Positions 1,936 to 63,227 are shown, numbered from the stretch's first letter. The stretch is 64,000 bases of DNA from Hormiphora californensis (GCA_020137815.1 CM035351.1:9858001-9922000), one strand, 5' to 3'. Made by a program: numbers and translations. The notes: generated from the letters alone by a model not told the origin.

Positions 1936-2014
1936 GCTTAAATCATGACGGAGTGTATGCCGTTTATGCGATTGAACGTATAGGAGTGTGAGCGAGTATG
2001 CGTCTGCGTGCATA

Positions 2015-2144
<130 letters not shown>

Positions 2145-4038: not shown

Positions 4039-4092
4039 TAACTTAAACATCATTCGTTAATCTAATTTAATGGTTTATAAAAACTAATGAAT

Positions 4093-4351
4093 AACTAGAC
4101 CAAAAAACAAAGGAAATTTGTTTGGAACACCCGTGGCCTTTTTCGATACTTGACGCTGCGGGAAATGCACCCATAATCTGAGCTATACTACTAGGTATCG
4201 TTGTGCCATCTCTCCAAGTTCTAACATACGCACACTTTCTCTCACTCTTCCTCACGTCTTGCTCTGACGAAGGGTGCATTTCCCGCAGCGTCAAGTATCG
4301 AAAAAGGCCACGGGTGTTCCAAACAAATTTCCTTTGTTTTTTGGTCTAGTT
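4093..4351. repeat. Inverted repeat with arms of about 80 bp
   Basis: AACTAGACC...TGCACCC and its exact reverse complement. Confidence 0.8.
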
Positions 4352-4374
4352 TCTCAGGGTTTTTGTAAACAGGT

Positions 4375-5125: not shown

Positions 5126-6299
5126 TTTGAAATGTCCTTACAACAACCAATACCGAGATAATCATAAAATTATACATAAATTATGCATAATTAATGACTT
5201 CCCATGCTCAAATCAAAATTTTACATAGCCTACGACATGTAGAATAGTCGATTTATGGGGGGTCTTCCTCGGGACAAAAAGCTCTAAATCCAGCCGTTTT
5301 TGCTCAGTTTGGTTTGTAAAAAGGTGGTGCGTATGTATGTATGTATGTATGTATGTATGTATACAGAGCAAGCGTTTGGGACCCCCCTCGTAACTTTTGA
5401 ACGAAACCATCGATCCACTTGAAATTTTAAACACTATTAGATATCATTGAGGTAGCTTTACATACAAAATTTCAGCGTGCTAGCTTGTCGGGAACATGGT
5501 TAAATAGACGCTCGAAAAGGGCGAAAGTCACATCCGTATGGTATACTGCACTGGCCCCGAATCGGGCGAAATTAAATTTTCCGCGCCTGAGTTTATCCTT
5601 TCAGATTTGATCTTATAATGTTCTAGGATGACCTTAGAAGGGGTGGGATGGTTTTTCATTGCTGGGGGCTTTGCCCCCAGACCCCCATTAGGCCACGGGG
5701 CACTTGCCAGTGCAGTGATCTAATGAAGCTAAAATGGGAGGCGGGGTATCGAGATTTGGAATCATCAGCGTACAAAAGCACGCGCAAACACAAAGGCGCG
5801 CGCGGACCTCAAAGAGCCGCGCAGCTCCATTCACTCCGCAAACAACCGATGTTTCAAATTTCTGACGGGAAGTTGTGTATCTGAGATCTCATCTCTCACT
5901 CCTTTTTTGCTTTTCTCTTCCGCTTGTAATACTACCTATTAACGTGTATCCCTTACTTCGCGGACTTTTTTCAGCAGTCAGATTCTACACATCACATCAC
6001 AGTTTGTCACAGCTCAGTTGAGCTGCAAAAACCGTTTTGCTTGTGAATCTCCCTGATTGTGAGAGCAATCTCTATCTCTTTCCCGTGCTCACAGCCTCCA
6101 CTGGTTATAGGTATTACTTCTGCTACCAGCTTCAAGGACCGGTTGAGGGTGTACACTGTACAGTTATGAAAGGGTACAGTGGAGTATTTGTGGTGAAGTG
6201 CAAGGAGACTGAGGGATATTTGATCTGTAATCTGTTGAAGGAATCTTTTCCAAGGTGTGACTGCTGGCCGTAGTTTGTGAGACACTTAAAAGACGCCTA

Positions 6300-11689: not shown

Positions 11690-13400
11690 CAACATCTCGA
11701 AAAGCATGAAATTGCGTGCAGAATGGATCTACACTGCAGTAGTTAGACCGAACCTTGAATACGGGATAGAAATAACAAACACCGCACTACAAAACAAGAA
11801 AATAGCTAACAAACTGAGAAGCGTCCAAGGGAAGGCACTAAAAATGATAACTGGAGCACTAGCAACTACAGCAACGGCAGACCTAAACATTCTTACAGAC
11901 TATATTGACATAGCTGAACACCTAAAAGTGAACGTGGCAAAAACCATTACTAAACTAAGAAACGAAGGACAATGGACCAAAGAAAAACCGAAACACAACG
12001 GACACAAAAGTATTGACGATAACATAAGACGTTACATAGGCCACAAACAAATCGACACAGCCACACCGACGTCCGACACTCAACTTGGATACGGCCTTCA
12101 CCACAACCGTGCCAGACGACCCAAACGAGTACGCAAAAGAAGCTGAAAAAGAAATGGAGAGTGACACACCAATTCAATGCTACACAGACGGATCAAAAAA
12201 TGAAAAAGGAGAAACAGGCAGCGGAATATTTATAATAAAACAAAGGAAAGAAATTGTCAGAAACTCTAATAACCTACCGGACACATCGACAGTATTCCAA
12301 GCGGAAGTAATAGCCATCACGAAAGTAGCGAAAACAATGATAGAAAGTAAACAAGAACATGAAGAAATAAATATCTGGCTGGATAGCCAGGCAGCCATAA
12401 AAGCCCTAATGTTATATCATATCACTCCCGCTCCGCGCGACCATTTGCACGGTGAAATATGCACTCTGCTTCCACGGGAGCATGCAGATATAGGGGTAGC
12501 GGGATATAAGTAAGAACAGTGTCCCTCAGTGTTTTTACACCTTATTCACACACAAACACACAGAATATGACTGACAAGGTACCACACAACACATTTTACA
12601 CTCACTCTCCCTGCAGCGGGGGGAACTCAGGTTCTTCGTGCCAGCTGAGTTCTTCTAGCTCAGTCCCGTTGCCGTGGACCTGGTTGGCTGATGGTCCAGT
12701 GATTACGGTCAAATCACACCGGCTCTCTCCCCAATCTTGGGGAGTAAACTTTGCCAGAGACCTTGCCGAACTCAACTATGGCACCGAGCTCTTGCAGTGC
12801 GACTGGTCCCTGCTGGGATTTGGTTCGGCGGTCGATTGATGAGCGGTTGGTTGACGATTGATATCAGTCGTTGATCGATCGTTTGTCGGTCGGTCGTCGG
12901 GCTGAGTCTTAGTGGGGATCCCGGTTGAACTGATAATCTCACCCCAGCCAGTAACCTTGTTACACATGGCAACCCATGATTTGTAATCACCGAGGGCCTC
13001 TGCCTACTAGGCATGCCTGATGACCCTTCGGCTGTCTCCCATTTAATTATGGGGGTAAATTCTACGCCAGAGAACTAGCCTCCCTCAATTATGGCAACCC
13101 ATGATTTGTAATCACCCGGCAGCTGTAGCCTTTAAAACAGCCCTCCTGTCCAACATCCCATATTGGTCGGACGGAGGTTACCTTCTCTCGCAAAAATAGG
13201 GGTTATTCCCCTGGGGAACCTCTGCCCAAATTTTTGCCACATACTACCTTTGCAGCTCCTCCACTGCCCCGACCTAGATGAGCTACGATACAAGCTCGAC
13301 TACCAAGATATCATCAACAACATTCTCACTCCCAGCAACACACTGGATCTGCACAAATTCTCCAAATTAGTATACAGAAGTAACCTATTCGAATAAACCA
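11690..13400 (+). mobile_element. 3' part of an RNase H-containing LINE (I/R1/LOA group), interrupted by an LTR-like insert
   Basis: YTAVVRPNLEYG; RNase H motifs YTDGSK, TVFQAEVIAI, DSQAAIKAL; C-terminal HCPDLDELR at about 13260. Confidence 0.85.
12410..13241. mobile_element. Probable solo LTR
   Basis: Begins TGTTATATCAT, the same start as the LTR at 62181, exactly where the RNase H frame breaks; ends ...GCCACA. No TSD recovered. Confidence 0.45.
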
Positions 13401-14939: not shown

Positions 14940-16450
14940 CATGAGAATAAATTGCTGTTGGAGGAGAGGATGATTTGGTGCGACTGTGCAACGTTTACAG
15001 GCCACCTTACAACGGTAAAGCAAGGTTTACTGAGGCTAACTTTCTTGATGAGTTCAATGATTACCTCTCTAACCTTTTGATGAAAAATGGAAGTCCATCG
15101 ATTATGGGTGATTTCAACTTTCAAGTACAAGACTTCAGGAACTTCTCCACAAAGAAACTCCTTAACCTTCTGGACTCGTTTGATTTTGTCCAGAATGTGC
15201 CGCTGTTGCCTACTCATCTTCAAGGAGGAACTCTGGATTTAGTTTTCTGTCAGCGTGTTATGGCCAGTAAGTTGGGGAACCTGAGGATATTTCCAGATGG
15301 TACGATGTCGGATCACTATCTGGTAATGGTGGATGTTAAGTTGGCTTCTGAAGGAAGATATGTTTCCCGAGAGAGGATGAGTGTCTACCATGATTTTAAG
15401 GCTGTAGATGTAGAGGTCTTCCGGAGTGGGCTGAGGGATATGTGTTTGGAAATTCCAGATGACGTAACACTGTTAAGGTGGTCTTGTATGATAATGTGTG
15501 GGTGAGTAGGTTTACTGTTTTGTATAACACTTGAGAACTACAGTATATATTGCAAGGCAATGTTAACTTGCAATCAGTGATCTGATGGGTATCTTCCGAT
15601 TCAAGGGGTGATGGGTCAGATATCAATGGGATCGTTCTCGGGTCCTTCCGTACTATGGTGTGAGTCGGGTGAAGAGTCTGGTGGTAAGTGAGTCCAAGTG
15701 AGTCTCAGTGCGTGTCAGTGAGTGTCCTCTCCGCTTCGTATCCTCCTTTAAGTATTGCACCGATTCTCCTCGGTAGACATAACAATTGGTTGTTATCTGA
15801 CGCATGTGTAATAGGAATTTTGCTTTACGTCAGGTGTCCTCACGTCTCTCGGTATCCATCCAGCGTAGGTAAACAATCTAGAATCCCCGGAAAGCTTGAC
15901 GTCAGGTGTCCTCACGTCTCTCGGTATCTATCCAGCGAAGGTAAACAATCTAGAATCCCCGGAAAGCTATCCAAGATGAAGTAATGAAATATGTGGATAT
16001 AACAACACCAGAACAGGCTTTGTATCTGTATGATAGAGCTTTGAAGGAGGCTGTAGATAGATTTGTCCCGACCAGACGGAGGAAATCGGTGAAGAACTTC
16101 AGGCCTTGGAGAGAGAGACAGGATGTTCGGGACACCCTGCGGGAGAGAAGAAAAGCGGAGAGGGCTTGGGAGAAGAATAAAACAGGACTAACGAAAGCAC
16201 GGTACATGGAACTCCAACGACAGTTTGAGAGGATTGACAAGGAGGCAAGAATGGAGTATGTAAAGAAGAAGCTTGAAGATGTGAAGGATGACCCTGCTGG
16301 ACTTCAGAAAATGTTGGCTCGACTACTGGGGAAGAAAGAGACTCTTCTACCGGGTGGACTGTCTGTCAAGAAACTAGCTGATAACTTTGCACAGTTTTTC
16401 TCTGGAAAGATTGATAAAATACGGTCTACTGTTAGTGACATTGACACCTA
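14940..16450 (+). mobile_element. L2-like LINE ORF2 fragment (APE and linker), split by a solo LTR
   Basis: VYRPP, MGDFNF, PTHLQGGTLDLV, SDHYLV, RPW, FAQFFSGKIDKIR. Frame DDVT|PEQ rejoins across the LTR. Confidence 0.9.
15471..16004 (-). mobile_element. Solo LTR with 4-bp TSD (ACAC), related to the LTR at 62181
   Basis: Termini TGTTAAGGTGG...GATATAACA; ACAC on both sides; shares GTGTGGGTGAGTA..GTTTACTG with 62738-62760; internal duplication of about 66 bp. Confidence 0.85.
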
Positions 16451-24207: not shown

Positions 24208-24251
24208 GACTTTCAGGCTTTTCAGCACTGCTTGAAATAAATTAATTTGAG
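24208..24251 (+). other. Diverged spliced-leader-like sequence at the LINE 5' end
   Basis: GACTTTCAGGCTTTTCAGCACTGCTTGAAATAAATTAATTTGAG aligns without gaps to 47399-47442. It has 7/44 mismatches to the ctenophore SL as I recall it and is followed by GT. Confidence 0.7.
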
Positions 24252-24347
24252 GTCTATGACCTCGAATTAAAAGACTTCCCTAGCTATGGCTTTTTAGCAA
24301 GGGTTCCTGCATGACATCTATATATCCCTGCAACTCCAACCACCAAC

Positions 24348-26155
24348 ATGGATCGACACTTCCTTGAATCTTTATCCAACCTATCTGCAGCTCGATTGGA
24401 GTGTTTCTGAACATATAAAAAAGGAGCTCTGCAAGAGGAAGAAGGACACCACTAACACTGACCCTACGCAATTCATCACCTATGAGCCATTGGATCCATC
24501 GCATCCTATTCTCGCTCAGCGAATAATAGGATGCCGGCCCGTTGAGAGCAAGAACTCACGTGCGCGCGATATAAAGCACGTTTTCAGCAGATCGCGCGTG
24601 ATAGACCGTTTTTGGAGACCTTTTTAGCTGACCTAGCACTACTCAAAGGTCAATTATGGCCTCATTTCGCATCGTGATGAATCGGCGGGTATTTACCCAT
24701 ACTCACAAGGCCATGACGATTCCCCCAGTACCCGCAGATTGTCCCAGGACCGAGTAGGAGCTTGCAGCCAGGTCTTTAAAGAATTGCTCATGTTTAGCGT
24801 CAATTTTGACCCACTATTCCTCAAATGCTGATACTCGCGGGTATTTTCCGTGAAACTAGAGACAATTGTCTGCCAGGAGCAACAAACGAGATGCAAATCG
24901 GTTGAGTAGTTCCTTGCAGCCAGGTCTTTGAAAAAGTTTGCTCTAAAATCAATAACGCGCCGGAGGCCTAGATGTGAGATCGATCTCGGTGCTGTGAGCC
25001 ACACTTTCTAGACGAGACACAGAGGGAGTTACTGAGGGGGGAAGTCAGTCAGTTCAGCGCTGGGGGTCGCATCACTAACACCTGGATCACCCTTAGTGAT
25101 CGGAGCTACGGCTGGGGAAACGCCAACTTGAGTCCTTTGGATATGACTCTGTTTCCCTGTATCAAGAGAGCACTGGAGCAGTTCAGCAGGTAGTGACCAA
25201 CGCCCTGGCCTGGAATCTTGCCTGGTTACATACTATCCAAGCGGTCAGGGTGTTGGGTACCACAACGATTTTGAAAAAGCCCTGGATGCGAACTTGAGGG
25301 GTCACATCACATACATAAAAGGGAGAGAAAGAGGGAAAGAAAAAGAGAGGGATCACATCACAAGGTAGCTCGCTTAGCTACCTGGTCTATCACTAGGACT
25401 TTGTGGGGGAGAGAGAGAGAGAGACAGAAAGATAGAGATAGCAGATAGAGAGATACATAGCGACAGACAGACAGAGTGAGGCAGAGAGGAAAAGATAGAA
25501 ACAGGTCCCTCGATTTGCGATCGGTACGATCGCCCCAGTTTTGCTAGTACTGACTAAACAGGAGTTCTCCCAACATAACAAAAATATCTCAGTGATGGGT
25601 GGGTCGATTTTGAGAGGCAAAAACGCAAAATACTCAGAAAGCTAATCTCTACTACCTACAACAAACTTGTCCAATTCTGATTCGGTCCAGTCTCACTTTA
25701 AGGGATACAGCGCCGACCTACGGGAAGCTGCAGATTATTCTTTGTTACCAGTGGATGGCTCCATGTATACCATGAAAGCTGGGTGCCAGGAAGCCTTTAA
25801 GCACAGAGTACTAAAGTGTAATAAGATCAGGGGATCTCTTGGAAAATTTGCTCTGTCCTTCAGGAGGGTAGACTCTGCAACAACTACTGATCTGGTACCA
25901 CCATCCCAACATCCTACTCAACCTGAGACAGAACATAGGTTAACCCCTCTCCCTCCCCAGGAAAGGGAGGTCACTGTCCTGATAGGGACAAGTATGTCAA
26001 AGTGGATTCCATCCGGTCCTGGGTTTATAAACATGTCAACCTCGGGTGCTAGACTCATCTCCCCGCACCCAGACTGGAAAGGAGCTACTGCACTGGATCT
26101 GCTCCGTGACCTTAAGAACCGTGAGCCAGAATTGTCTATCGGCTACCTGATAGTA
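24348..26155 (+). pseudogene. LINE ORF1 remnant: AlkB-family 2OG-Fe(II) dioxygenase domain followed by SGNH/GDSL esterase
   Basis: AlkB motifs: YEPHFLDETQRELL, SCLVTYYPSGQGVGYHNDFE (HxD at 25261-25269), LATWSITRTLW, DGSMYTMKAGCQEAFKHRV, KFALSFRR. SGNH motifs: VLIGTSM and STSGAR. Contains stops, frameshifts and insertions. Confidence 0.8.
25288..25547 (+). mobile_element. 3' half of the same Helitron family inside the AlkB ORF
   Basis: Matches 29165-29548, including the hairpin and CTAG. Confidence 0.75.
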
Positions 26156-30443: not shown

Positions 30444-31269
30444 TGAAGTATTCTTAAGTTATGAAGTATTTTTTCTGGATGCGACAAGAAGCATTTGAAT
30501 TCCACAGATTTATGAAGCATTTTCAAATTGAAGTAAATGAAGTGAAGTATCTTCTGATTTGAAAATACTTCAAACAAAATCTGCAACTGATTTATGAAGC
30601 ATTTTCAAATTGAAGTAAATGAAGTGAAGTATCTTCTGAGTGGACAATACTTCAAACAAAATCTGCAGCTGATTGAAGTATTTCAATAGAATTTTTTAAA
30701 TGAAGCAAACAACTGAAGCAAATTTTTCTGCGGTTATTACTTCTATGGTAGAAAAGTTTAACGAAGCAGTATTTATTTCCGAATTATATTAGCGAAGCAA
30801 TTGCCATTTGCTTCACTTTTCTGCAGTTTTTCAAAAATAAAAGTACTTCACAAAAAACACTTCACTCTATTTTTTGAAGATTGAGACACGAGACTTAGCC
30901 CATCTTGTAGATCTTTTTCTCCTGATCAAGATGGTATAAATAACTCAAAATCGCCAAAATTGCAAATACTTCATTCTAAAAAAAAGGGGCAGAGTAGCGT
31001 TTGGAAGGTAAATAACACCCAGCCAACCGACGTGGGCAGGCCGAGAACCATGTCATCCTATGCTACAATAACTACGGATAGTAGCACCAATATAGCACGG
31101 TCCCAGCAGCCGAGCTCCAATGCAGCACGTGAGCCAGCCCCATTTGATGAGCAGGCTTTTTTCGAAAGACTCTTGGGCGATGGACGCGAGAATGGACGCG
31201 AAAATGAGAGAAATGCTAGACGTGAGACTAGAGCCGAGACGAACGTGGAGGGAACGTTAGGGCCTGTTT

Positions 31270-34085
31270 CGCCTACGAGCAAGCTGTTACTGCTTAATGC
31301 AAGGAGTCCAGCAGGTGATACAGGTTGGAAACTCGGAGACTGTGTTACGCAAGAGAAAACTCCCAAAGTAGCCATTGCAGTAACTGAGACTTGGTTTGAG
31401 GGTTATCATTCTGATGCTCAGGTTCAGATACCAGGGTATGACGTATATAATAGAAGTGATAGAGAGAACCGAGTCGGCGGAGGCTGTGCCTTATATGTTC
31501 AATGTTCGCTGGCTGTTTCTGACAGTATATATTTTGCGAGTGGGAATAACAATATGTGTGTATGTTGATCAAATAAACACTATTTATGCTGCTGTGTATC
31601 GCTCCGAGTCAAGTGTGTTAGACTTTCAAAAGCTGATGGACAATTTGCAGACTTTTATAGATAAACACAGTGATGGATGATTATCAGAGGTCGTAATTTC
31701 TGGGGATTTTAATCTTCCTCTTTTTCAGTGGTCCGATGGTTCGTCTGTCCCGGTTGATCAGCCTAACTACAATGTTGTTGATTTCATAGACACAAACTTT
31801 CTATCCCAAGTTGTTGAGGGCCCTACAAGAGGCAACAACACGCTAGACCTTGTGTTTACCAACCGTCCAGAATATTTCAGCGATATTTCTATTACGGATG
31901 GGGGTATCTCGGACCATTTCTGGGTATCATGTGAACTATCTTTCAACCCTCTCGGTCCTAAAAGTTTATTTCTTCCCAGTACACTTGAGGGTTATCGTCA
32001 ATTGGATCTTCAGTCGGCTGACTTCACTAGTATTGATGCGGAACTAGCGGCTACTGATTGGGATCGAATGTTGACGGAATGTGAAGAACTGGGAGACGAG
32101 GATGGTTCCCTTTTTGTGGAGGCCATGCGTGACAAAGTGTTCAAAGTTGTAAAGTCACACTGTCGTCTGTCGGTTGAAGAAAATCAGAAAAGAGTTTGTG
32201 GACAAAGAACTGAAACACTTAACTAGCAGGAGACGTAAATTGGTTAAACGAGAGGACGATTCAAACAAATCGAAATCACAGATGGACTGTATTATTGGAA
32301 GGATAAAGGACCATCTGATATCAAGGGACAAGAAGTCAGAGAGGAAGGCTGTGAGCTGTCGGCGTAATTAAAGAAAACCCGAAGTTCTTTTATTCACACG
32401 TCAAGAGGAAATCAAAGGTTAAATCTTCAGTTGCACCCCTTGAGCGTGAAGATGGTTCACTAACTGTGGATCCTCAAGATAATGCTGGACTACTCCAACA
32501 CCAGTTTTCCAGTGTTTTTAGTGATCCTTCCGCTATCGACCCCGCAGAGGCGGCTGGTAACGTGGAGGACCTTGGTGAGATCCTGACAAGTTTGGAGTTT
32601 TCACAGGAATGTATCCAGACTGGCTTGAAGGAACTTAAACCATTCTCAGCATCCCCTCCTGACTGCATTCCTTCTTTTGTTCTGAAACAGTGCAGCAGTA
32701 GCCTGGCATACCCGATTTGTTGTGGAACAGGTCATTTGAAGACGGATCTGTCCCTATAGTTGCTTAAAGCAACAGTTCATAACACCGTTATTCAAGAAGG
32801 GGGCTAAATCGAAACCTGTGAATTATCGCCCAGTGTCTATAACAAGTCACCTGTCTAAAGTGTTTGAGCGGCTGGTGAGGAAACGGATCAGTGACTACTT
32901 GGACGAGATGGAGTTGCAGAGTGACACACAGCATGGTTTTAGGAAGGGGCGCAGTACCATGACACAAACCCATGTTGACATCATCCTATCTGAACTATGC
33001 GGTGATCAGGAAGTCGATGCTATCTACTTAGATTTTAGTAAAGCATTTGATTCCGTGGATATCAATGTTCTGCTAGCTAAATTGAGGTGATATGGTATTG
33101 GAGGTCAACTCCTTCAGTGGATCAGTGCGTGGATCCTGGGCAGGAATCAGTGTGTAATGGTGGATGGAGTGAGGTCGCCCTGGGTTGAGGTACTTAGTGG
33201 GGTTGCCCAGGGTAGTGTGCTCGGACCACTTCTTTTCCTCATATATATTCTTGACCTGGAGACAGTACTAGACGGTAGCATGTGTCTAACTTTTGCTGAC
33301 GATACTAAGTTTGTAAAAGCTATTTCGGATATGAATAGCCAGGCGTGCCTACAGAACGATCTTTTAAGAGTGGCAGAATGGGCAAAGAAGAACAATATGA
33401 AGTTACATGAGGACAAATTTCAGCTCTTGAGCTATAGTCTGAATAAGTCTGCTATCCTCAGACAGTTTCCTTTCGCAGCTGAAGTGTTTTCATACACTAC
33501 AAGCTCAGGTGTGCAGTTGACCCCCGAACCTGATGTTCGTGATCTGGGTGTCCAGATGTCTTCAGATGGGTCATGGACGAGGCACATTTCTATCATAGTG
33601 CGGAAGGCTTCCCTCTTGAGTGACTGGATATTCAGCGTTTTTCGGAACCGTTCTCCGGAGGTTATGGTACAGCTTTTCAAGTCCTTGGTCAGGCCTATTC
33701 TTGAGTACTGTTGCCTAGTCTGGAACCCTTCCAAGGCTGGTGATATCAAGGCTATTGAGAATGTCCAACGTTGTTTCACCAGACGTCTTGATGGTATGCA
33801 GGGTCATGACTATTGGGATAGACTGAAATTGCTCAATCTTATGTCCCTTCAGCGTCGGAGACAGCGCTACATTCTGATTCATGTGTGGAAGACGATTCAT
33901 GGTTTTGTACCTAACTCTGCCAACCTAGTATTTCAACAGCACGCTAGACTGGGTATGCGGATAGTCCCACCACCTTACCCCTATAGAGCAGAAACGAAAC
34001 GAGCTAATCAATTTCACTGCTCATTTGGTCCAAGAGCAGCTCATTTATGGAACACTCTACCAGCTAAGGCCAAATTTTCGACGTC
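31270..34085 (+). pseudogene. LINE ORF2 remnant (AP endonuclease + reverse transcriptase), CR1-like
   Basis: APE motifs: VTETWF, DRENRVGGG, GDFNLP, PTRGNNTLDL, SDH. RT motifs: NYRPVSITS, QHGFRKGRS, YLDFSKAFDSV, GVAQGSVLGPLLF, FADDTK, VRPILEY...WNP. Frameshifts and stops present. Confidence 0.95.
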
Positions 34086-35174
34086 AAGGCATCGCAATCA
34101 ATAAAGCCGCCACCGGACAGCTCCTATACCTTCTCTCCCACGAAACGACAAAACCACGAACACTCCTTGATCGGGGACAACATCGAGGAGGAGCCTCGAC
34201 ATTTGCTCCCTCTGTATGGAGGGAAGACACCAGCTTCAGGCCTGCCCTCTGAACAGGCCCACATCTCCGCTCCGGATCCTGCGGCGTTTCAACCTGTGTG
34301 CCTGCCGGGAGTTATCGAGGACCGTAAACCTGGATCCGAATACGCACATCGAGAGGACCATAGTGGACCAGTTCCTATGCGACCACCATCTTCCTCGCCA
34401 ACACGTCCAGCAGCAGCGCCCGACTGAGGACAACACCATACTCGATCTGCAACTAATTTGGCAGGTCTCGTATCCCATACCCAATTAGTTGCAGATACCG
34501 AATAATTTCACCGATTCGTCTCCCGTATCCCATACACAATTAGTTGCAGATACCGAATTACTTCACCGATTCGTCTCTCGTATCCCATACAGAGATAGAG
34601 AGATCACGTGAGAGAAACCCTATTTCTGGCTGCTAAAATCTATTTCTGGCTGCTAAATCTATTTCTGGCTGCTTGCAGCCAGAAATAGGTCTAGCAGCCA
34701 GAAATAGCAGCCAGAAATAGACTGTCGAGCAACTGTGCACCTGCCGTGAATTTTTCAAAACGTGAACCCCGGTCGGATTTCTTGAACACGTATTTTTGAC
34801 TTTAGGACGATATATCTGACGATTGGTAAGACTTGGAACGTCAATCTTGCAACCAAAATGTTCGCCAGACAATTCTCTAGAACACTGGTTTTTGTTAGAA
34901 CCATGTTGACCAATTTTTCGATGAGTTTTGATTAATTTGACGGAACCCGGTCATGACCAGTAATCGCAAGTCACGCAAAGACAGTGGGACACTACTACCA
35001 TCTTTCGATTCCAATGAATGTTCATAAATTTTCAGTGGTGATTAGGCTTGCTTTTGCGTGGGACGTGGGTGCGGTACCTTTTTTAAATGTGCATATTTCT
35101 AGCTTAGAAGATATCTCAAAATAATCTTATGAAACGAGTAGAGAAGACACCGAAGGCATTACAGTGAGAGAGAA

Positions 35175-35630: not shown

Positions 35631-35833
35631 TTTTTACTTTAAAACCTTGACATTTAGTCCAAAACTTCAAAATTTTCGGGGTTCGCTTAGAGGTACCGGG
35701 CTACCCTAAAATGAGGCTTAATCACCGCCTTTAATGTCTTTTAATGTCCTTTAATGTCTCAGGGACATTAAAGTCGGACGTGTATGTTTAGGACATGGAT
35801 ATTAAATTCATGCGCCCCCTAATTTTCACTAAC

Positions 35834-36045
35834 CTTTGCGGTACAATCGTCGCTGGCGCTTATCACACAATCTGTGTGGCTAGTGAAGACTGCACAGGAA
35901 ACTGTCGCCGTATGGCCCTGGTACACATTAACTGAATGAATAGAAGTCCGGAAATCCCATACTCGGAATGTAGTATCCTTGCTGCAGGTGACAATAAGCG
36001 CTTGGGAGGGATGCACCGCTGTGTGTGTCAATTCTTCTTCGTGAC
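35834..36045 (-). CDS. WDR37: WDR37-like exon (WD40)
   Basis: cgcag acceptor and gttagt donor; phase 1 to 0. Encodes [70 protein letters not shown]. Confidence 0.94.
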
Positions 36046-36690
36046 CTGCGATAGTGTGTGTTTGAACCTCTCCGAACGGCAGGTGAGAAGAAGCCCGACC
36101 GGTTAAGGGACCCTTTAAGGGACCCTAGAAAGTTAAGGGACCCTTTAATGAGGTAGAACGAATCGTGAGCAGTCCTATAATAAAATGTATCGGGGAGGAG
36201 AACCTCTAGGAATGGTCTAAACCATTCCCGACTCCTCCAGGTAAAACATACCATGAATTCAAGAGGTGCACTCCTAGAAGTGAATTTTTCCATTTCTAGC
36301 CGGTGTACCTCAAGGCTGGGGAAGGTAGCCCCCCGTGCTACATCCCTCCCATCCCAGCCCCTCACGGAGAAGAAGAAGGTATCATTTCTCGATTTCGGGC
36401 AGAGCGAGGGCGGGGCCCGGAAAATTTGAGGTTATGGACGAAAAAATCAGTGTTTTGAGCTCATTTTGGCCATCTATCTCAGCCACCCAGTTCCACCACT
36501 CCTGGTGGTAAAAGATCAACAAAAAATAACAAAAGGAGCGTCACCCGTCGATGCATGGAAAACTAAGGGCGGACACACTGGGTGCATGTTGCTGAAGAAA
36601 TGTGGGAGCAATGTTTTGAAACGTTTCATCTGTTTGCTCCAAACATTCACCACAAAACATCAATGAGTTCAGGGTAATCCATGTACCTAC

Positions 36691-40875: not shown

Positions 40876-41764
40876 ACTGGGGTTGGTAATGAAATTCCCC
40901 CTCTGCGCTAGCTCACGGAGGGGTAATAATATCGCTTGTACGTTGGGAAAAAAATTCCTGTGTCCAAACTACAAAACAGAAAGTTCTAATTATTTGAACA
41001 TACCGAGGAAATTGTCTGAGCTACCTTTACATACCGGAATTTTTCGATATTTTGGCCATTAACACTGTTTTTGTTTTTGTAAACTATGAAGATGCTGGAA
41101 TTTGGCTACAAAAAGCTTCAGAAATGTGCAAAATGCCATTCCAAAGGTATTAGAGGTGGATTCATTGATAACTAAGCTATAGTCGAGTCAGAATAAATTC
41201 CACAAGATTGGAATTTTATGCCCATATAAGGAGTTCTGCGACACACCTCTGTTGTTAAACATGTGGTGGAATCGCTACCGGTCGTTACTTTCTGTAGAAT
41301 TCAGGTCCTGGTTACTATACAAACTAGTACCATACGTTTTAGATAGGTTTTAGACAAGTTTTCGATAACTTTTCATGAGAAGGTCCTGTAAATTTTCATT
41401 TTTAGGTAGGCGGTATTGTCACCCCTATATGCAATAATAGGGGTGACTTCGTAACCAACTACTGGGGTGAGAACCGACTAAGTGAAAAGTTAACCATTTT
41501 GCCCCGGTTTACCCTAATATCATTATTCAGTGCTTGTTCTGCTAGTCGCGTGTGCGGGGACGAGATAATCTTGCGCACTGCGCGCTAATGGAGTCCGCGC
41601 GTTACGTCAAGTGTGTTACGAATAAGAGTCTCAAATCGAGTCTGAAACTTGTGTAAGTTGTAACCTGTTTCAAATTGTAACCTGTTTCAAATTGTAAATT
41701 GTTTCAAATTGTAAATTGTAAACTGTTTCAAACTGTTTCAAATTTCTTATGAAAATGTATATAT

Positions 41765-42118
41765 AGGAGTTTCATGCTTGGAGTGGGGGCCACTGTGGGA
41801 CCTCCGAACTGTGGGAACTTCAAACTTTTCCAAGAGGGCAGCAAGAAGATGGAAAGCTCTGATGATGAACTAGATACACGGACCTACCTGCGGGAAACAG
41901 ATGTGGAAGAAGAACACGTCCGATACTGTCAAGAACAAACCGTGGAGTGGGTAAGCGAGGTATTAACCCTAACCGGTGGGTTCGGTGAAATAAACCCGAA
42001 CAGAGTGCAGCAGTATGGACCACAGACAGCGGAAGTTTGGAATGATCTGAAGGTCCCCTCCAGAACCAAACTCAATGCACTGACCAAGCCAGTGCTTTTA
42101 GACCTTGTGGAGGTGTCA
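41765..42118 (+). pseudogene. Probable LINE ORF1 N-terminal fragment preceded by a split SL-like sequence
   Basis: AGGAGTTTCA (41765) and TTCAAACTTTTC (41819) flank an inverted copy of the motif at 47308-47345. Then ATG MESSDDELD..., open for about 90 codons and truncated. Confidence 0.45.
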
Positions 42119-43966: not shown

Positions 43967-45052
43967 AGACAGTTGGGTGATCGGATAACTGTTTATTAGC
44001 CTCATGTTTGATATTCAGAGTTTTTGTTATTCTCTCTGTGGCTGGACAAATGAATCAGACGGGTATAATGACGCTACCAGTTTCGAGGATCTACCTCTTC
44101 ATCGGGCTACAAAAATAAATAGTGTTAATTATAAATATATAGTAAAAAACTAAAATCACACACGTCAATCAACACAAAATTATAAATCAGCACTTTAATA
44201 ATAAACTAAACACTGTACAGAGGAGCAAGTCTCATATGATCAGTACAGAGTGAACTGAAGTTACCGTTACAATACAGCAGGTGAGATGCAGTGATAAACA
44301 AATAGGGCGTGCATGAGGTGATACACAAGGACTATCACAAATTAATACAAACTATTACGCACACAAACACACGAACCCACTGGACAACAACAACAACAGC
44401 AACTAAATATTAAATTAAATATCTCGTAAGTTCGGAACATTCCTCTTTATTGTTCATACCAGGTCTCAGTTTCTGTATATACATGGCCTCTAAAATTTTC
44501 CTCTTTAAAATGTTTCTCTCGGTGGTTACTATCTTAACCCCCTAAACTCAGTTTTAAGATATTAACCACCGAGAGAAACATTTTAAAGAGGAAAATTTTA
44601 GAGGCCATGTATATACAGAAACTGAGACCTGGTATGAACAATAAAGAGGAATGTTCCGAACTTACGAGATATTTAATTTAATATTTAGTTGCTGTTGTTG
44701 TTGTTGTCCAGTGGGTTCGTGTGTTTGTGTGCGTAATAGTTTGTATTAATTTGTGATAGTCCTTGTGTATCACCTCATGCACGCCCTATTTGTTTATCAC
44801 TGCATCTCACCTGCTGTATTGTAACGGTAACTTCAGTTCACTCTGTACTGATCATATGAGACTTGCTCCTCTGTACAGTGTTTAGTTTATTATTAAAGTG
44901 CTGATTTATAATTTTGTGTTGATTGACGTGTGTGATTTTAGTTTTTTTACTATATATTTATAATTAACACTATTTATTTTTGTAGCCCGATGAAGAGGTA
45001 GATCCTCGAAACTGGTAGCGTCATTATACCCGTCTGATTCATTTGTCCAGCC
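43967..45052. mobile_element. Palindromic truncated Penelope-like element (second family), TSD ACTGATGGCTTT
   Basis: Arms of about 500 bp fold at about 44545. The right arm encodes the GIY-YIG tail KILTTERNILKRKILEAMYIQKLRPGMNNKEE. The left arm has an extra tail of about 70 nt. The 12-bp duplication is single-copy in the opposite arm of the host MITE. Confidence 0.88.
44981..45028 (+). ncRNA. Variant hammerhead motif (CCGATGA core); other copies at about 44065-44112 (-) and 40726-40770 (+)
   Basis: CCGATGA-A, stem II GAGG/CCTC, GAAAC, tggtagc, then GTC cleavage triplet. Confidence 0.65.
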
Positions 45053-47396
45053 ACTGATGGCTTTGTTTTTAAATTAAATTTCAAAAGTTCATTTTTCATG
45101 AATGAACATTCCTGTCATTCATTCGTGAATTCTGAAATATTGTTTACCTTGAGTAAAAAACTTTTCTTTGGCTCGAAATTATCTTTCCAATGAGCACCAT
45201 AAAAATCAAATTGAAGCACCGGATCGCATGGCAGGTGAGAAAATACAAATGCATGATTTTGGCCATTCCTGCGACTTTCAATCAGCTGTATCACCGCTAC
45301 TTTCAGTTCAATCCTTTTAAAAGTTTGGGTGAACATTGGTGAAGATAAGATCTTTGCTCACAAAAAAAATCAAGTTCAAAACTCAAAGTTCATTTTTCAT
45401 TTTTGGTAGTTCATTCCACTCATTCAGGAACAAACATCCCTAAAGTGACGAAAAGGTTTGGGTTTTGTTTGGCCCATGTCCTGAAACGACAGAGAGGAGT
45501 AAAAACGTGTTTCCGGGCTAGTTAGTGGGTGTCCATGTGATCATTATGATATCTGACACCTTTGCTGAGCCATAATTAAGAGATTTTCTCAAACTCAAAC
45601 ATGGGATACAAGTATTCTGCGATTGGTATCGTGCACCAATAACAAGAGATCCCATAGCACCTCAAAAATTATGATTAGCTAAATGAAATGAGTTTATTTA
45701 CGATTGAAAAGATTAAAACCAATGTAAAGTCGGACTAAACGAACATTTTCAAGCGTGAATCAACTCATTTCATTTAGCTAATCATAATTTTTGAGGTGCT
45801 ATGGGATCTCTTGTTATTGGTGCACGATACCAATCGCAGAATACTCGTATCCCATGTTTGAATTTGAGAAAATCTCTTAATTATGGCTCAGCAAAGGTGT
45901 CAGATATCATAATGATCACATGGACACCCACTAACTAGCCCGGAAACACGTTTTTACACCTCTCTGTCGTTTCAGGACATGGGCCAAACAAAACCCAAAC
46001 CTTTTCGTCACTTTAGGGATGTTTGTTCCTGAATGAGTGGAATGAACTACCAAAAATGAAAAATGAACTTTGAGTTTTGAACTTGATTTTTTTTTGTGAG
46101 CAAAGATCTTATCTTCACCAATGTTCACCCAAACTTTTAAAAGGATTGAACTGAAAGTAGCGGTGATACAGCTGATTGAAAGTCGCAGGAATGGCCAAAA
46201 TCATGCATTTGCATTTTCTCACCTGCCATGCGATCCGGTGCTTCAATTTGATTTTTATGGTGCTCATTGGAAAGATAATTTCGAGCCAAAGAAAAGTTTT
46301 TTACTCAAGGTAAACAATATTTCAGAATTCACGAATGAATGACAGGAATGTTCATTCATGAAAAATGAACTTTTGAAATTTAATTTAAAAACAAAGCCAT
46401 CAGTTAGGAAGGAATTAATCCAGCACACTCCCGTAGTTTGTTTTCACACAACTATCACCGTTTTTGCGTGACAGCTCGCCAACCGACCCACAGAATATAT
46501 GGGACACCCTGTAATTAGCGGGTTCAAAACGAACAGATACGTGATACCATGCCGAATCGGGGCACCCTAACCGGGTTAGGAAGTATGAAAATTTCAAAAT
46601 AACTTTTTCTCTCAAAATTTATGGGGAGCACCGATCAAAGCATTGACAATCGTACTGTAAAATTTTGCAAAAAAGTTTTAAAATTTTTTAAACGTATACC
46701 AGCCACGTCCGAATCGTGTTTTGAATCGGTACATCTTATCACATGTCCTGCTGCTAATTAGACGGTTCGGAACGAATCGAAAAGTGATCCCCATCGAATC
46801 GAAATTTTGACGCTTGGTGAACTTGTGATTCAATGGCCCCATGGGGATCACGTATCGGTTCGTTCCGAAACTTCTAATTAGCAGCAGGACATGCGATAAG
46901 ATTCACTGATTCGAAACACGATTCGGACGTGGCTGGTATTTTCAAAAAAATTTCACAAAAAATTTCACAAAAAAAATTCAAAAAATTTTTGGGGGAAAAA
47001 AATCCTGTCCCTAAATCGGGGTGTCCCTAAATCGGGGGTCCCTAAATCGGGGTCCGGCTGTAACAGCTGTATAAGTTGTCACGAGACGATTGATATGTGT
47101 ATTTTGTTCGAAATAACGCCCTAAAACATACTTTTTGAAATGAATATGCCCATATATGGGCATAGCTCGTGCCAACGTAATTGGGCCATGGTAGAGCCAA
47201 AACTTTGTGATAAAATGTTTTAGAATGATCGTAGGAGCTCATTTAACCCGATACCAAGTGAAATTTTGAATTAAATTAGGCATTTGAAAAAATAGCACAC
47301 GCGAGACCAGTTCGAAGGTCACACAGTGGCCCCCACTCCAAGCATTATGATGCTGCGGACGGTGACACCAGCCCTTCAAGGTTGGGACAGCAGTAT

Positions 47397-47442
47397 AGGA
47401 GTTTCAAACTTTTCAACACTACTTTAAACAAATTAACTTGAG
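47397..47442 (+). other. Spliced-leader exon-like sequence at the 5' end of a LINE
   Basis: AGGAGTTTCAAACTTTTCAACACTACTTTAAACAAATTAACTTGAG, about 1 mismatch to the recalled Pleurobrachia/Hormiphora-type SL. Followed by GT; no clear Sm site seen. Confidence 0.8.
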
Positions 47443-50139
47443 GTGTACGTATGTAAAGAGCGCCGTACACCACCCACAGTAAGCTCTCTCAAGAAGAAGA
47501 TCATCAACTACATCAGTTAGTCACTCTGAAGTTCGGACCACGCCACCCTCAGCCACATCATCATCCTGGGTCCTAACCCCGTCAGTCCGGCATGACGTGT
47601 TTTAGGTGGATTGTTGGCCCTGGCAGAGAAGCTGAAAGACAAGCAAGCTGATGCAGTGAAGTCAGTGATAACGCTTTTTCAACCAGGGAAGACTGCTACA
47701 GCGAATTCGAACAAAGTGACAACGGTAGGGAGACCAAACCTGAACGAATGCAGTACATTCTTGGGAATAGATGCTCTGTACTCAAAGGGCAACAAAGCGT
47801 TCTCAAATAAGGATCAACTAACGAAGATGATAGTCTAGTAAGGTCCAACTTAACATATTAATAGGTGCATCTGAATGCCTGGAATGTGGAGAAAACTTCA
47901 CCTTCCAGCGAGGGAGGAGAGAGATACTGAGGTCCTATGCAGTCAGCCCTCTCATGACTGTGAGAAAGTTGTGGGAGTGTGCGAGTCTAGGGATGAGGAT
48001 GGTATGCTGTCCCTGACCTCGGACGTCTGGCTATGTAGTGCATGTTTCAAACCAAAAGTAACGGAGACAGTGAGCAGCCGAGCTTCACTTCGACACCAAT
48101 GGCCAGTCAGACGGAAAAGAAGGATACCAGTGACCATCCCATGCAATTTCCGTCGCCACGTGACACAGCAACTCCAGGAGGCGGCTGAGGAGAGGGAAAC
48201 CGACGTTGAAGACGAAGAAAAGGGAAAAGCAACAGAAAAAGAGGAAGACGAGAAGGGCGAACTGGAAGAAGGAGAGATAGAGCAAGAAGATACGAGTAAT
48301 ATGGACGTGAAGGCACAGGAATTAGCCACAGCATTGAAGGAAGTTGAACGCAAGCAGAAAGATGAGGAGAAGTTTCCAAACACTGCTTCAACAACATGTT
48401 ACCGGTTAAAAACTGGGGCCTGCCCGCACGGCTTGCGGGGAAATAATGCAGCAGAGGGGAAACCAAACTGCACAAACTTTCACCCGAAGATATGTAAGAA
48501 GTTTTCTAGGAGTGGAACTGGAAAAGACGGGTGACCAGGGTGATAAGTGCAAGAGACTACACAAGACGAGATGCCCCGCTGCAAAGGAATCATGATGCGT
48601 AGACCAAACATGTAAGCTTTTACACCATCGTGGCACAGTCAGAGCCTGGAACGAGAAAGAGAAAAAGCAGAAAGGGTGAAGTTAAGATAGCAGTAGGGGC
48701 GAAAGGAGAAGAGTCTTATAGAAAAATTACAGCGAAGAACGATGCCGGTGATCGGAGCCAGCGATGGAGACCCCAGAGCGAGCAAGCAAAACAAAAGGCA
48801 GAGAACCTATCTGGAAGGAAACAAGCTCCCGAACTGCGAGGTAATCGTGAGAACTCAGCTCGGGGACAGCTAAACCAAAGAGGCAGACAGCAAACCCGGC
48901 ATACTACCTGACAGACACACGGTAGAACGGGAGACTGGGACAGAGGGAGACCGAAAGAGAGATGGGGCATGGGAAGAGGCTGTACTAATGACATTATGAC
49001 AAGTTCAGGCCCTTCGTCATTATCGTAATTGATCATATCTCCGGTTCCTGATAAGCTACAGAAATCTATTGCATACCGTTGGAAAGGAAATTTTAAGGCC
49101 CATTGAATGGCGTTGGTTTGAAGTCTTATCAGGAACAGGAGTTATGAGCCAAAACGTGAAAAGTTGATGTTAAAAAACTTTTTTACGTGTTTGAAAAAAC
49201 CCAAATTGGTGTGGCGCGCAACTTTTGCGTGTGCTGTTCTAAGCGCTCCTACTATTAGATAGAAATGAAAGCAGCAGATGGACTACACTATGGAGTGGAA
49301 AAAATGATGAGCAAGGGGAGTCTTTTTTAGACCAGCGCTCCATTCTGAAGCGACTAATGTAAACGGAACAGATGATTAGGAGGAGCCTCAGGTTAGGAGA
49401 CCAGAAAATGGAGGACAGGCAATTGGAAAGGGGAGGATGGAGGAGAGGAAACCATTTGGCGGGATCATATTAAACATGCAGTCAGCAAACCCAGGAGCCA
49501 GGAGCAGCTGCTCTTGGAAAATTGGAGCCTTAAAGGGGATAGTGGAAACTAGTCCGTTCAAGGTTCCTTTTATTGCTCTAACAGAAACCTGCTTGCGGGA
49601 CGGGATCGAAGATAAGCAGATCTCTCTAGGAGAAGAGTATGCTATTAACCGCAGGGATAGGGATGGCAGGACGGGAGGAAATGCAGAGAGAGAGATAACA
49701 GTTAATTGTGGGCCAAGAGGAACAGTTGCCAACAGACATGTCATTTTATCGTGTTTCCAGTGATTCTTTGTGATCTTTACACAAATCTGTCATAAGAGGG
49801 CGTCCGTCTATCGAGACACAAACTCACGGCAGTGCACGGCGCAATAGACCGGTGCAAATTGTTCGTGCGGGGCGGGCGTCTATTTGAGCGAGCGGGGTCT
49901 ATACACCCCCCAAAACTTACCAGTAGAGAACGTGGTATCGTTAGATTACGATCACTGCCAACTACTGATATATACATATATATGCACGGCACCAACACCC
50001 AAATGGATCATAGGGGTAGTTTACAGGGCCCCTTCGGTAACGGTGGGAAACTTCAAGGCAGTCTTAAATCGGATCAAAAAGTACATCCAGGGGATGTATG
50101 ACCATGTGGTCTGCATTACGGGAGACTTCAACACCCCTT

Positions 50140-51876
50140 AGCTGGTATTAATAAACGGGGATTCGCGGATTCGCGGATAATGTCCCGGATCGCGGATAAA
50201 ATCGCGGATAATTAATCCCGGATTGGATCGCGGATCGCGGATAAGTAATCACGGATTGCGGATCGGGGATAAGTGATTGCGGATTGCGGATTGCGGATCG
50301 CGGATTGCGGATCGCGGATTGCGGATCGCGGATAAGTAATCGCGGATTGCGGATCGCGGATTGCGGATCGCGGATTGCGGATCGCGGATCGCGGATTGCG
50401 GATCGCGGATAAGTAATCGCGGATTGCGGATCGCGGATTGCGGATCGCGGATAAGTAATCGCGGATTGCGGATTGCGGATCGCGGATAAGTAATCGCGGA
50501 TTGCGGATTGCGGATCGCGGATAAAAAATCGCGGATAAAAAATCGCGGATAGAAAATCGCGGATAAAAAATCGCGGATAAAAAATCGCGGATAAAAAATC
50601 GCGGATAAAAAATCGCGGATAAAAAATCGTGGATAAAAAATTGCGGATAACAAATCGCGGATAACAAATCGCGGATAAAAAATCGCGGATAAAAAATCGC
50701 GGATAAAAAATCGCGGATAAAAAATCGTGGATAAAAAATTGCGGATAACAAATCGCGGATAACAAATCGCGGATAAAAAATCGCGGATAAAAATTGCGGA
50801 TAAAAAATCGCGGATAACGTTTTTATCTCTTTTTAGGTAATTTGTGGTCATTCTCAGGTGATTTTGATCGATTCCAGGTCATTTTGCTCATTTCTATGTC
50901 AATTTGGCCATTTCTGTACCATTTCTTGGCCACGTTGGTCAATTCTAGTTCATTTCCAGGTCATTCCTGTATATAGTGCATTGTGCTAGACCATTTTCGT
51001 GTGGATTTAGATGGTTCTGGGACACTTTGGTCAATTACGAGTAATTTATGTGTATATTTGGATACTTTTAGGACTCTAATGTGACCGAAGTGTCCTAGAA
51101 CCATCTAAATCCACACGAAAATGGTCTAGCACAATGCACTATATACAGGAATGACCTGGAAATGAACTAGAATTGACCAACGTGGCCAAGAAATGGTACA
51201 GAAATGGCCAAATTGACATAGAAATGAGCAAAATGACCTGGAATCGATCAAAATCACCTGAGAATGACCACAAATTACCTAAAAAGAGATAAAAACGTTA
51301 TCCGCGATTTTTTATCCGCAATTTTTATCCGCAATTTTTATCCGCGATTTTTTATCCGCGATTTTTTATCCGCGATTTTTTATCCGCGATTTTTTATCCG
51401 CGATTTTTTATCCACGATTTTTTATCCGCGATTTTTTATCCGCGATTTTTTATCCGCGATTTTCTATCCGCGATTTTTTATCCGCGATTTTTTATCCGCA
51501 ATCCGCAATCCGCAATCCGCGATTACTTATCCGCGATTACTTATCCGCGATTACTTATCCGCGATCCGCAATCCGCGATTACTTATCCGCGATCCGCAAT
51601 CCGCGATTACTTATCCGCGATCCGCAATCCGCGATTACTTATCCGCGATCCGCAATCCGCGATCCGCAATCCGCGATCCGCGATTACTTATCCGCGATCC
51701 GCAATCCGCGATTACTTATCCGCGATCCGCAATCCGCGATCACTTATCCCCGATCCGCAATCCGCAATTACTTATCCGCGATCCGCGATCCAATCCGGGA
51801 TTAATTATCCGCGATTTTATCCGCGATCCGGGACATTATCCGCGAATCCGCGAATCCCCGTTTATTAATACCAGCT
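50140..51876. mobile_element. 1.7-kb foldback element with 3-bp TSD CTT and ATCGCGG arrays
   Basis: TIR AGCTGGTATTAATAAACGGGG; removing it restores GDFNTPCIEW. Confidence 0.9.
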
Positions 51877-52462
51877 CTTGTATAGAATGGGACCCACCTA
51901 CGACTGTTGTGCTGGGGATTTCAGGGGACATCGAGGAACACGACTGGGAGGAAATTTACAATTATAGCTGTTATACTACTAGAACATGCCTAGAAAGTTT
52001 CATGTCAAAATATCAAACGGTGTGGCCACAGTTCGTAAATCAATTTTCCAAAAAATGTGCAGGGGCAACCCTAAAATGTGTAGGGGCACCCAAAAAAGGT
52101 CATTTTTGTATGCCTATAACTAATCAATTTTGACTATTCCCACTTTTTGTAGATCATTTTTTATGCATGAAGAACATTCCTACAAAGTTTCAAGTCGATA
52201 TTTCAAGTAGAACGGAAAATAAAAACGGTGCAGGGGACAAAACACGCCATGTGCAGGGGAACGGTACAGGGGCTGATTTTTAATAGCCTATAATTAATAA
52301 ATTACATATACTTAAAAAAATTAAAAATTCGGCTCCACTACTTTTTTTGTTTTTTCTGTTTTCTTCGGGTCGGAGGTGCCTGCCGGCACCTAAATAATAT
52401 GGGTCCTTCTACTTTCTAGTCATGTAATTTCTATTAGTTTTTGACATAATCATAATACATAC

Positions 52463-52678: not shown

Positions 52679-53808
52679 GGGCAGGTCGGTAGAACTTCGA
52701 CAGAATTTAGGGTAGGTCAATTTAGGGTAGGTCTGAATTTAGGGTAGGTCAATTTAGGGTAGGTCTGAATTTAGGGTAGGTCTGAATTTAGGGTAGGTCA
52801 ACTTAGGGTAGGTCTGAATTTAGGGTAGGTCTGAATTCAGGGTAGGTCCGTAATGTATCGTTTATCAAAGCATTGCAATTCGACATTAGATTCTGATTAG
52901 GTCGCTGAACCGCGTCCCGTATCTCGTATCTCTTCGATCTTAGTCACCGATTAGGTCGCTGAACCACGTCCCGTATCTCGTGTCAACTCATTGAAATTCG
53001 AGGTTAGACACAGATTAGGTCACTGAACCACGTCCCGTATCTTGTATCAAATCATTACAATTCGAGGTTAGACAAAAATTAGATGGCAAACGAATTTCAT
53101 TTGATGCGATATGGAACACAGTCTACCGACCTAACTCAGTTCACCTACTTTAAGTAGTAGGGTAGCGACTGGCTATTTGAAATGGCGGCTAATTTGAAAT
53201 ACCCCCTCTACAGGCCAGCAGTTGCACCAGATTTGGATTTTTAGACATCAGTGGGCTAGTCAGAACTCATGCCAAGCCCACTGATGTCTAAAAATCCAAA
53301 TCTGGTGCACCTGCTGGCCTGTAGAGGGGGTGTTTCAAATTAGCCGCCATTTCAAATAGCCAGTCGCTACTCTACTTAGTGTCGGTGACTCGAATTTCAA
53401 TGAGTTGATACGAGATACGGGACGTGTTTTAGGGGCCTAATTTGAGTCTAACCTCGAATTTCAATGAGTTGACACGAGATACGGGACGTGGTTCAGCGAC
53501 CTAATCGGTGACTAAGATCGAAGAGATACGAGATACGGGACGCGGTTCAGCGACCTAATCAGAACCTAATGTCGAATTGCAATGCTTTGATAAACGATAC
53601 ATTACGGACCTACCTTAAATTCAGACCTACCCTAAATTCAGACCTACCCTAAATTGACCTACCCTAAATTCAGACCTACCCTAAATGCACCTACCCTAAG
53701 TTCAGACCTACCCTAAATTTACCTACCCTAAATTCAGACCTACCCTAAATTCAGACCTACCCTAAATTGACATACCCTAAATTCTGTCGAAGTTCTACCG
53801 ACCTGCCC
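52679..53808. mobile_element. Foldback element with TTTAGGGTAGGTC subrepeats and a nested palindrome (53156-53376)
   Basis: TIR GGGCAGGTCGGTAGAACTTCGAC; related GGCAGGTCGGAA ends at about 2784 and 3200. Confidence 0.85.
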
Positions 53809-62180: not shown

Positions 62181-63227
62181 TGTTATATCATGATTCCTTC
62201 ACATTGACTTCATCATGTACGCGGAGAGATTACATCATGCCTGGGAACCACAGGATGGCTACGATGATATTGGATACCTCGAGGAGTACCTACGTCAAGC
62301 GGAATCGATAAGATGTTTTACCTACCATCTTTGATATGACTACGAGGAGCACCTACGTCAAGCAAGAACGGGAAGATGTTTAACATACGATCTTTGTTAT
62401 GTCTATCGTGATGACAGAGGAAACAAGGCACTGCACTATATAACCGAGATGAAGAACTGGGAAGAGGACCGATCCGCTACTACCACACAGCATCCCTATA
62501 GCGGAACAAAGACCCCTACCTCCCCTGCACCGCCAAGCTATCCTCCTTGACTCTCCCACGGATACCCGATTGTAATAGCAAGATTACCTTCACCTTGCTA
62601 TAACCTGTAGTTGTCTCGTGTACCCTATTCCCTAAACCAGTAAACTTTACTCACCCACACGTCACGGGTCACCACACAACCACCTTAACAAGTGGTCCCG
62701 TATCAGGCTCCACTTGTTAAGGTGGTTGTGTGGTGACGTGTGGGTGAGTAAAGTTTACTGGTTTAGGGAATAGGGTACACGAGACAACTACAGGTTATAG
62801 CAAGGTGAAGGTAATCTTGCTATTACAATCGGGTATCCGTGGGAGAGTCAAGGAGGATAGCTTGGCGGTGCAGGGGAGGTAGGGGTCTTTGTTCCGCTAT
62901 AGGGATGCTGTGTGGTAGTAGCGGATCGGTCCTCTTCCCAGTTCTTCATCTCGGTTATATAGTGCAGTGCCTTGTTTCCTCTGTCATCACGATAGACATA
63001 ACAAAGATCGTATGTTAAACATCTTCCCGTTCTTGCTTGACGTAGGTGCTCCTCGTAGTCATATCAAAGATGGTAGGTAAAACATCTTATCGATTCCGCT
63101 TGACGTAGGTACTCCTCGAGGTATCCAATATCATCGTAGCCATCCTGTGGTTCCCAGGCATGATGTAATCTCTCCGCGTACATGATGAAGTCAATGTGAA
63201 GGAATCATGATATAACATATCCCCCTT
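62181..63227. mobile_element. Inverted pair of LTRs joined by a PBS-like spacer; PPT adjacent to the right copy
   Basis: TGTTATATC...CCTTAACA at 62181-62690 and its reverse complement at 62715-63217. Spacer on the minus strand reads AGTGGAGCCTGATACGGGACCACT. AAGGGGGATA (minus) at 63218-63227. Confidence 0.85.

Follow-up and report, generated by a model that had tools for sequence, protein, structure and literature searches.

Why does a copy of the ctenophore spliced leader (SL) stand at the 5′ end of a long interspersed nuclear element (LINE)? The question is raised by a 64,000-nucleotide (nt) stretch of the Hormiphora californensis genome (GCA_020137815.1 CM035351.1:9858001-9922000; hereafter the window, numbered from its first letter), in which a leader copy lies above a broken LINE that we call element 1. 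A preliminary description of the sequence had offered three answers: (a) a retrocopy of a trans-spliced LINE messenger RNA (mRNA), (b) a leader fixed in the 5′ untranslated region (UTR), or (c) insertion into, or capture of, an SL RNA gene. The best fit is a combination of (b) with capture as in (c): the SL, the GT behind it and a predicted hairpin around that GT probably, if by no means securely, form a 5′ head that was captured from an SL RNA gene and is now fixed and inherited in a CR1-like LINE family. The parts of element 1 are as follows, where ORF denotes an open reading frame and APE an AP (apurinic/apyrimidinic) endonuclease.

47399-47442, + strand: SL exon copy, the head of element 1, 43/44 identical to the H. 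californensis leader
47442-47471, + strand: predicted hairpin with an 8-bp stem (folding prediction), holding the donor-like GT at 47443-47444
47443-47565, + strand: 5′ UTR of element 1, apparently common to two ORF1 lineages, without an Sm motif
47566-49473, + strand: broken ORF1 whose Cys/His clusters are PHD-like and CCCH-like (tblastn with P0001, E 3e-107; insertion at ~48994-49256)
49476-51960, + strand: ORF2 fragment, N-terminal part of an APE-type endonuclease, interrupted at ~49680-49899 and ~50140-51876

The leader had been described as nearly identical to the ctenophore SL, and comparison by eye with the 44-nt H. californensis leader quoted in PMC8527503 bears this out: 47399-47442 agrees at 43 of 44 positions, above 90% identity, the sole mismatch being leader position 39 (47437). 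The 20-nt SL core has a single occurrence in the window, where 100 shuffles gave an expectation of 0. The surroundings also turned out as first described, in that the distance of about 170 bp to ORF1 amounts to 169 nt from 47397 to the ORF1 start at 47566 (123 nt from the SL end to that start position), the SL exon is directly followed by GT at 47443-47444 and by the predicted hairpin at 47442-47471, and 47443-47565 contains neither an RA(T)3-6 Sm motif nor a T4 run. Rfam at its gathering threshold gave 0 matches in this analysis, ARAGORN 0 genes, and scans of viral and prokaryote collections with SL patterns 0 matches. The reading of 47399-47442 as a ctenophore SL copy at the 5′ end of a LINE is confirmed.

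The start of ORF1 was set by homology: P0001 aligns from its residue 1 (tblastn), and an ATG stands at the start in L001, a single locus from 180 pattern hits of one metagenome scan and the only outside relative found, which matches the beginning of ORF1 at 220 of 273 nt. Element 1 itself reads CTG where ORF1 starts, meets a stop in frame at codon 10, and carries frameshifts as well as insertions. A homologue search with an ORF1 fragment returned two full-length relatives, P0001 and P0002, and a wider search 992 proteins at E ≤0.001; the Cys/His clusters are invariant in 14 aligned relatives, the Pfam match to zf-CCCH is weak (E 0.94), an atlas comparison of P0001 reached 0.81 at best and is a lead only, and no ORF relatives were confirmed in the viral and prokaryote collections. 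ORF1 is followed by an ORF2 that opens with an AP endonuclease, the order of an APE-type LINE, with weak Pfam support (Exo_endo_phos_2, E 0.26). The endonuclease fragment shares 35% identity over 55 amino acids (aa; pairwise E 4e-6) with the endonuclease of the LINE at 30885-34101, which bears a reverse transcriptase (RT); a homologue search kept 0 of 23 candidates. The Protein Data Bank gave a single match only, at E 0.29. No RT remnant was found downstream of the ORF2 fragment, and the copy preserves no more than ORF1 and a portion of the endonuclease. Element 1 reads as a broken APE-type, CR1-like LINE, the CR1 label being drawn from the ORF1 type and from what we take to be CR1-like motifs in the related LINE at 30885-34101. 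That LINE (+ strand) has a CR1-like ORF2 with endonuclease and RT (RVT_1), frameshifts and an interrupted 5′ part; no leader-like copy lies near it.

An ungapped scan of both strands of the 64-kb window found a second SL copy, at the head of what we call element 2. The variant at 24208-24251 matches the element 1 SL at 36 of 44 positions, where the best of 30 shuffled windows reached 27 and the other matches 25-26, and agrees with the published leader at 37 of 44, under the 90% mark. Of the eight positions at which it departs from head 1, four are A-to-G changes, and several of the changes give rise to an 8-bp hairpin inside the exon (24208-24237). It too is directly followed by GT (24252-24253), and a predicted hairpin at 24242-24270 pairs the 3′ end of the SL with downstream bases.

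24208-24270, + strand: head of element 2, comprising the SL variant (24208-24251), GT and a predicted 13-bp hairpin (24242-24270)
24348-26155, + strand: broken ORF of element 2, AlkB (2OG-Fe(II)) and SGNH esterase, matching P0154

The ORF of element 2 opens with an ATG 96 nt below the SL variant and matches residues 1-319 of the 449 of P0154 at 72-93% in five pieces; P0154 and P0155, which carry PF13532 and PF13472 (AlkB and SGNH esterase), are intact relatives of 448-449 aa on contigs of 5.6-5.8 kb. From its sequence the ORF is likely a LINE ORF1, and element 2 only a likely LINE, because the esterase is typical of some CR1/L2 ORF1s yet no ORF2 is linked to it. Pairing it with the ORF2 at 30885 was considered and rejected: the frame upstream of that ORF2 resembles, by eye, the end of the other ORF1 type. 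The window holds two SL-like copies in 64 kb, both at most 125 nt above an ORF start and on the same strand; the chance that an unselected second copy would lie so near above an ORF start is ~0.002 for two known starts and, by a hand estimate, ~0.01 if ten are counted. Two elements with unrelated ORFs have the same layout of SL, GT and predicted hairpin. Because an SL copy followed by a donor predicted to be folded into a hairpin recurs in two unrelated elements, both likely carry a captured piece of a leader gene as their 5′ end.

A hairpin that contains the donor is a listed feature of SL RNAs (PMC12582326), and in both heads the donor is predicted to lie within a stem-loop. Pairing was compared with nulls in which leader and GT were kept fixed (500 shuffles and 500 random window segments). 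For element 1 the pairing probability of the donor was 0.999, equalled in 2/500 shuffles and 6/500 segments; for element 2, pairing as strong as observed arose in 7/500 shuffles and 2/500 segments. A 36-nt piece chosen around the hairpin of element 1 gave a folding z of -3.44, and 95 nt of element 2 one of -3.51.

Contigs from sequencing runs, 5 of 11 of which were aligned to the stretch (X1, X3, X5, X9 and X11), bear on whether the head recurs in other copies. All of these data are contigs, whose depth is not copy number, and the tool's bridging rule takes 31 letters on each side; the best holder, X1, belongs to study P1 and is possibly the source of the window, and X5 belongs to study P2. 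The contig profile of 47290-47589 falls into three separate units, an upstream repeat, the leader and the LINE head: the summed depth drops to ~1e4 at 47390-47399 between two high plateaus, the leader unit has a summed depth near 1e6 with mixed flanks on both sides, and from 47450 onward the depth is LINE-level, at ~900-5500. An 80-nt X5 contig (47424-47503, one difference) joins the last 19 SL nt to the head at a depth of 2299, some 4-8 times deeper than the window-identical LINE contigs of that run (277-541). An X1 contig at 47457-47565 (0 differences, depth 2146) ends where a divergent ORF1 contig first differs, at 47566, 31 nt from the end of the latter; the two ORF1 lineages differ at 28/213 and 29/269 nt in ORF1 (~11-13%). 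To judge by this contig structure, the head at 47457-47565 is apparently common to several copies and to both ORF1 lineages. A further X1 contig of 172 nt (depth 243) aligns only at 47419-47486, the last 24 SL bases and the hairpin, and continues upstream in other sequence, which is what a copy 5′-truncated inside the SL would show. In X11, which has the same species label and is RNA by our guess, 257 contigs align to 47290-47589, and the six bins of 47390-47449 are the only ones to have any depth; the contigs match the SL alone, with varied loose ends, and as contigs cannot show starts or strand. The hairpin is thus uncovered in X11, and in X9 the whole stretch is; neither gap is taken as evidence.

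Several observations weigh against an inherited head. The junction contigs fall below the 31-letter bridging rule, with only 19 and 24 letters on the SL side, and the depth of the X1 head is only ~2 times that of the single-locus flank (2146 versus 949). In the DNA runs, the loose ends with the best support fall immediately behind 47442 (9 contigs in X1, 21 in X3, 17 in X5), so that many genomic SL copies lack the GT and resemble relics of trans-spliced RNA. L001 keeps 34 of 36 UTR bases and is unrelated above 47530, so it is without the head; its palindromic upstream part, which includes a perfect palindrome (L001:33-63) just upstream of where the UTR similarity begins, may be a truncation flank. 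Contexts of 84-149 nt around hairpin 1 show no unusual stability (z -0.80 to +0.72), and head 1 as a whole folds with an ordinary energy, 82/500 shuffles being as low (82 and 134 of 500 in the two nulls). Heads 1 and 2 share nothing after the GT, no common SL intron being seen, and a G or GT often follows splice acceptors in any case. Element 1 has no Sm site, and in the window it is without RT, 3′ end or target duplication; to element 2, only a likely LINE, no ORF2 is linked within the window.

An inherited head could have arisen when a reverse transcriptase switched from LINE RNA to abundant SL RNA or, alternatively, when a LINE was read through from a dispersed SL gene. Once the head was fixed, every new copy would begin with the leader rather than have it added afresh. 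The LINE RNA would then mimic a trans-spliced mRNA, which might aid capping and translation and perhaps the start of transcription, and a hairpin that hid the donor would spare the full-length RNA from splicing to the candidate acceptors in the element 1 UTR (AG at 47479, 47516 or 47552), keeping it for retrotransposition. By analogy, the leader might also serve as an internal promoter; the SL gene of a nematode (Ascaris) reportedly contains one, to judge by the title of Hannon et al. 1990.

The first of the alternatives, answer (a), is that element 1 is a relic of trans-splicing, in which a LINE transcript made from a host promoter was given the SL at an acceptor immediately ahead of 47443 and was then retrotransposed as capped RNA, with GT and hairpin being simply part of the first exon. 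We regard this as rather unlikely. It would account for the many genomic SL copies that stop precisely where the exon does and are followed by varied sequence (agreement of 0.45 among the loose ends behind 47442), and the 5′-truncated copy fits it equally well; in L001 the similarity begins at CTACAG, a possible acceptor. There are precedents in other animals: about 30% of Hydra transposable element (TE) Iso-Seq reads carry an SL (PMC12220107), and partial leaders beside long terminal repeat (LTR) or LINE elements at 597 flatworm loci have been so interpreted (PMC12582326). What it explains less well is that in both elements the GT lies in a stem that spans the junction. Moreover, the junction would need the re-use of a GAG acceptor, which is rare; no tandem relic leaders are seen upstream, and the candidate acceptors inside the UTR are kept in the shared head. 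Comparison of flanks, which had been expected to differ between copies under (a) and to be conserved under (b), cannot separate the two, since a head forming the 5′ end of the element would likewise give each copy flanks of its own. The inherited head and the relic can moreover merge, if a trans-spliced retrocopy founded the family and its leader was then fixed.

We hold it unlikely that the SL is instead a target, LINEs inserting in dispersed SL genes, at the donor or immediately past it, and being read through from the SL promoter. NeSL and SLACS/CRE elements, which are specific for SL genes, have a restriction-like endonuclease, in contrast to the APE-like one here; because its ORF2 is APE-like, element 1 is not a member of NeSL/SLACS. 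The flanks also speak against a target, and they disfavour in particular the insertion half of (c), with a conserved array of SL genes as the site: the SL is abutted upstream by an unrelated repeat that has ends of its own, the upstream flanks of SL copies are mixed (loose-end agreement 0.4-0.59), and no conserved upstream promoter flank was found, while one copy has only 24 SL bases. In favour of a target, retroelements that target SLs exist, as NeSL does (PMC4640811), SL copies occur in great numbers (H. californensis has 718 and Mnemiopsis leidyi 491; PMC8527503), and in head 2 a T5 run that follows a C stands at 24291, 39 nt downstream of the donor and near the usual Sm position. Finally, a chance neighbourhood of a dispersed SL copy and a LINE, to which the commonness of SL copies, the nest of repeats in the window, L001 without an SL and the shortness of the junction contigs would lend themselves, is highly improbable given a junction contig deeper than the single-locus contigs, a second copy with another flank and a second element with the same layout.

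The inherited head that we favour has a counterpart in Tx1-Mar LINEs and SINEU, whose heads derive from the U1/U2 small nuclear RNAs (snRNAs) and for which template switching has been proposed, the mode of transcription being left open (Kojima 2015, PMC4494074). As in Tx1-Mar, an APE-type LINE probably has as its 5′ end a fragment of a spliceosomal small-RNA gene, and by this analogy element 1 would work like a small-RNA-headed LINE; unlike Tx1-Mar, it is the SL exon with its donor that is present here, the LINE is CR1-like, two ORF types are unrelated and no target preference is shown. Partial SLs in flatworms (PMC12582326) and trans-spliced TE transcripts in Hydra (PMC12220107) likewise link SLs to animal retroelements, but in flatworms the partial leader is, in the accessible text, the only SL RNA feature, whereas here a full-length leader and a GT in a hairpin are apparently common to copies. 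With NeSL-1 and SLACS/CRE (NeSL: PMC4640811) element 1 shares the position of a non-LTR element adjoining SL sequence, and differs from them in having ORF1, an APE-like start of ORF2 and no conserved SL-gene flank. By the SLIDR criteria for SL RNA genes (PMC7986045) the heads resemble such genes in the leader exon, the GT and the stem-loop containing the donor; unlike them, neither head has an AT4-6G Sm site 20-60 nt downstream, and the sequence runs on into LINE UTR and ORF1. Since the Sm site of these criteria is absent, the head of element 1 is not a complete SL RNA gene. ORF1 types of CR1/L2 LINEs include PHD (type III) and esterase (type IV) proteins (PMC4120745), like the PHD-like ORF1 of element 1 and the SGNH esterase of element 2, but the CCCH-like fingers of element 1 and the AlkB domain of element 2 set them apart; neither 'CCCH' nor '2OG' occurs in the main text of that article. 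By titles and abstracts, no AlkB domain in a LINE ORF1 was found in the literature, AlkB being listed, in the accessible portions, only in orchid LTR elements.

The repeat that abuts the leader is a flank and not part of the element.

47296-47393, strand not assigned: separate high-copy repeat of ~95 bp, whose contigs break off in loose ends before 47296 and behind 47341-47393

Its ends are variable at 47341-47345 and 47391-47397, and a partial second copy lies at 41774-41811. It was considered as an SL promoter and rejected, being a separate unit in the contig profile. At 41762-41830 (+ strand), 13 bases across the leader's 5′ end (corresponding to 47394-47406), an inverted part of the 95-bp repeat and 12 more leader bases stand together before an ORF at 41753-42118; this is possibly a third, rearranged leader-derived head. 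Elsewhere in the window, long foldback (inverted-repeat) elements lie at 44144-46404, 50140-51876, 52766-53689 and 62181-63217, some with internal tandem arrays of 14-17 nt, and one of them splits the endonuclease of element 1. Another endonuclease fragment occurs at 14951-15502 (+ strand; Pfam Exo_endo_phos_2, E 1.6e-9), a reading that we take by eye to be RNase H-like at ~12150-12400 (+ strand), and a WD40-like frame, by eye probably an exon of a host gene, at 35822-36124 (- strand).

No SL-headed ctenophore LINE was found in the literature by titles and abstracts, with most subscription journals, Repbase, Derelle et al. 2010 and the supplement of PMC8527503 outside this coverage. The accessible part of PMC8527503 reports hundreds of scattered SL copies in ctenophores (718 and 491, as above) and gives no account there of their nature. 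A wider idea, which we put forward tentatively as possible rather than probable, is that several unrelated ctenophore LINE families have repeatedly recruited the SL with its hairpin-masked donor as a portable 5′ module, serving as internal promoter and mRNA disguise, and that a large part of the dispersed SL copies are LINE heads and not SL RNA genes. If LINE heads make up many of the SL copies, their dispersion would be explained and the counting of SL genes would change; and, if the reading is true, retroelements would be exploiting the trans-splicing signal of their host to solve the 5′-end problem of a LINE, that of promoter, cap and translation.

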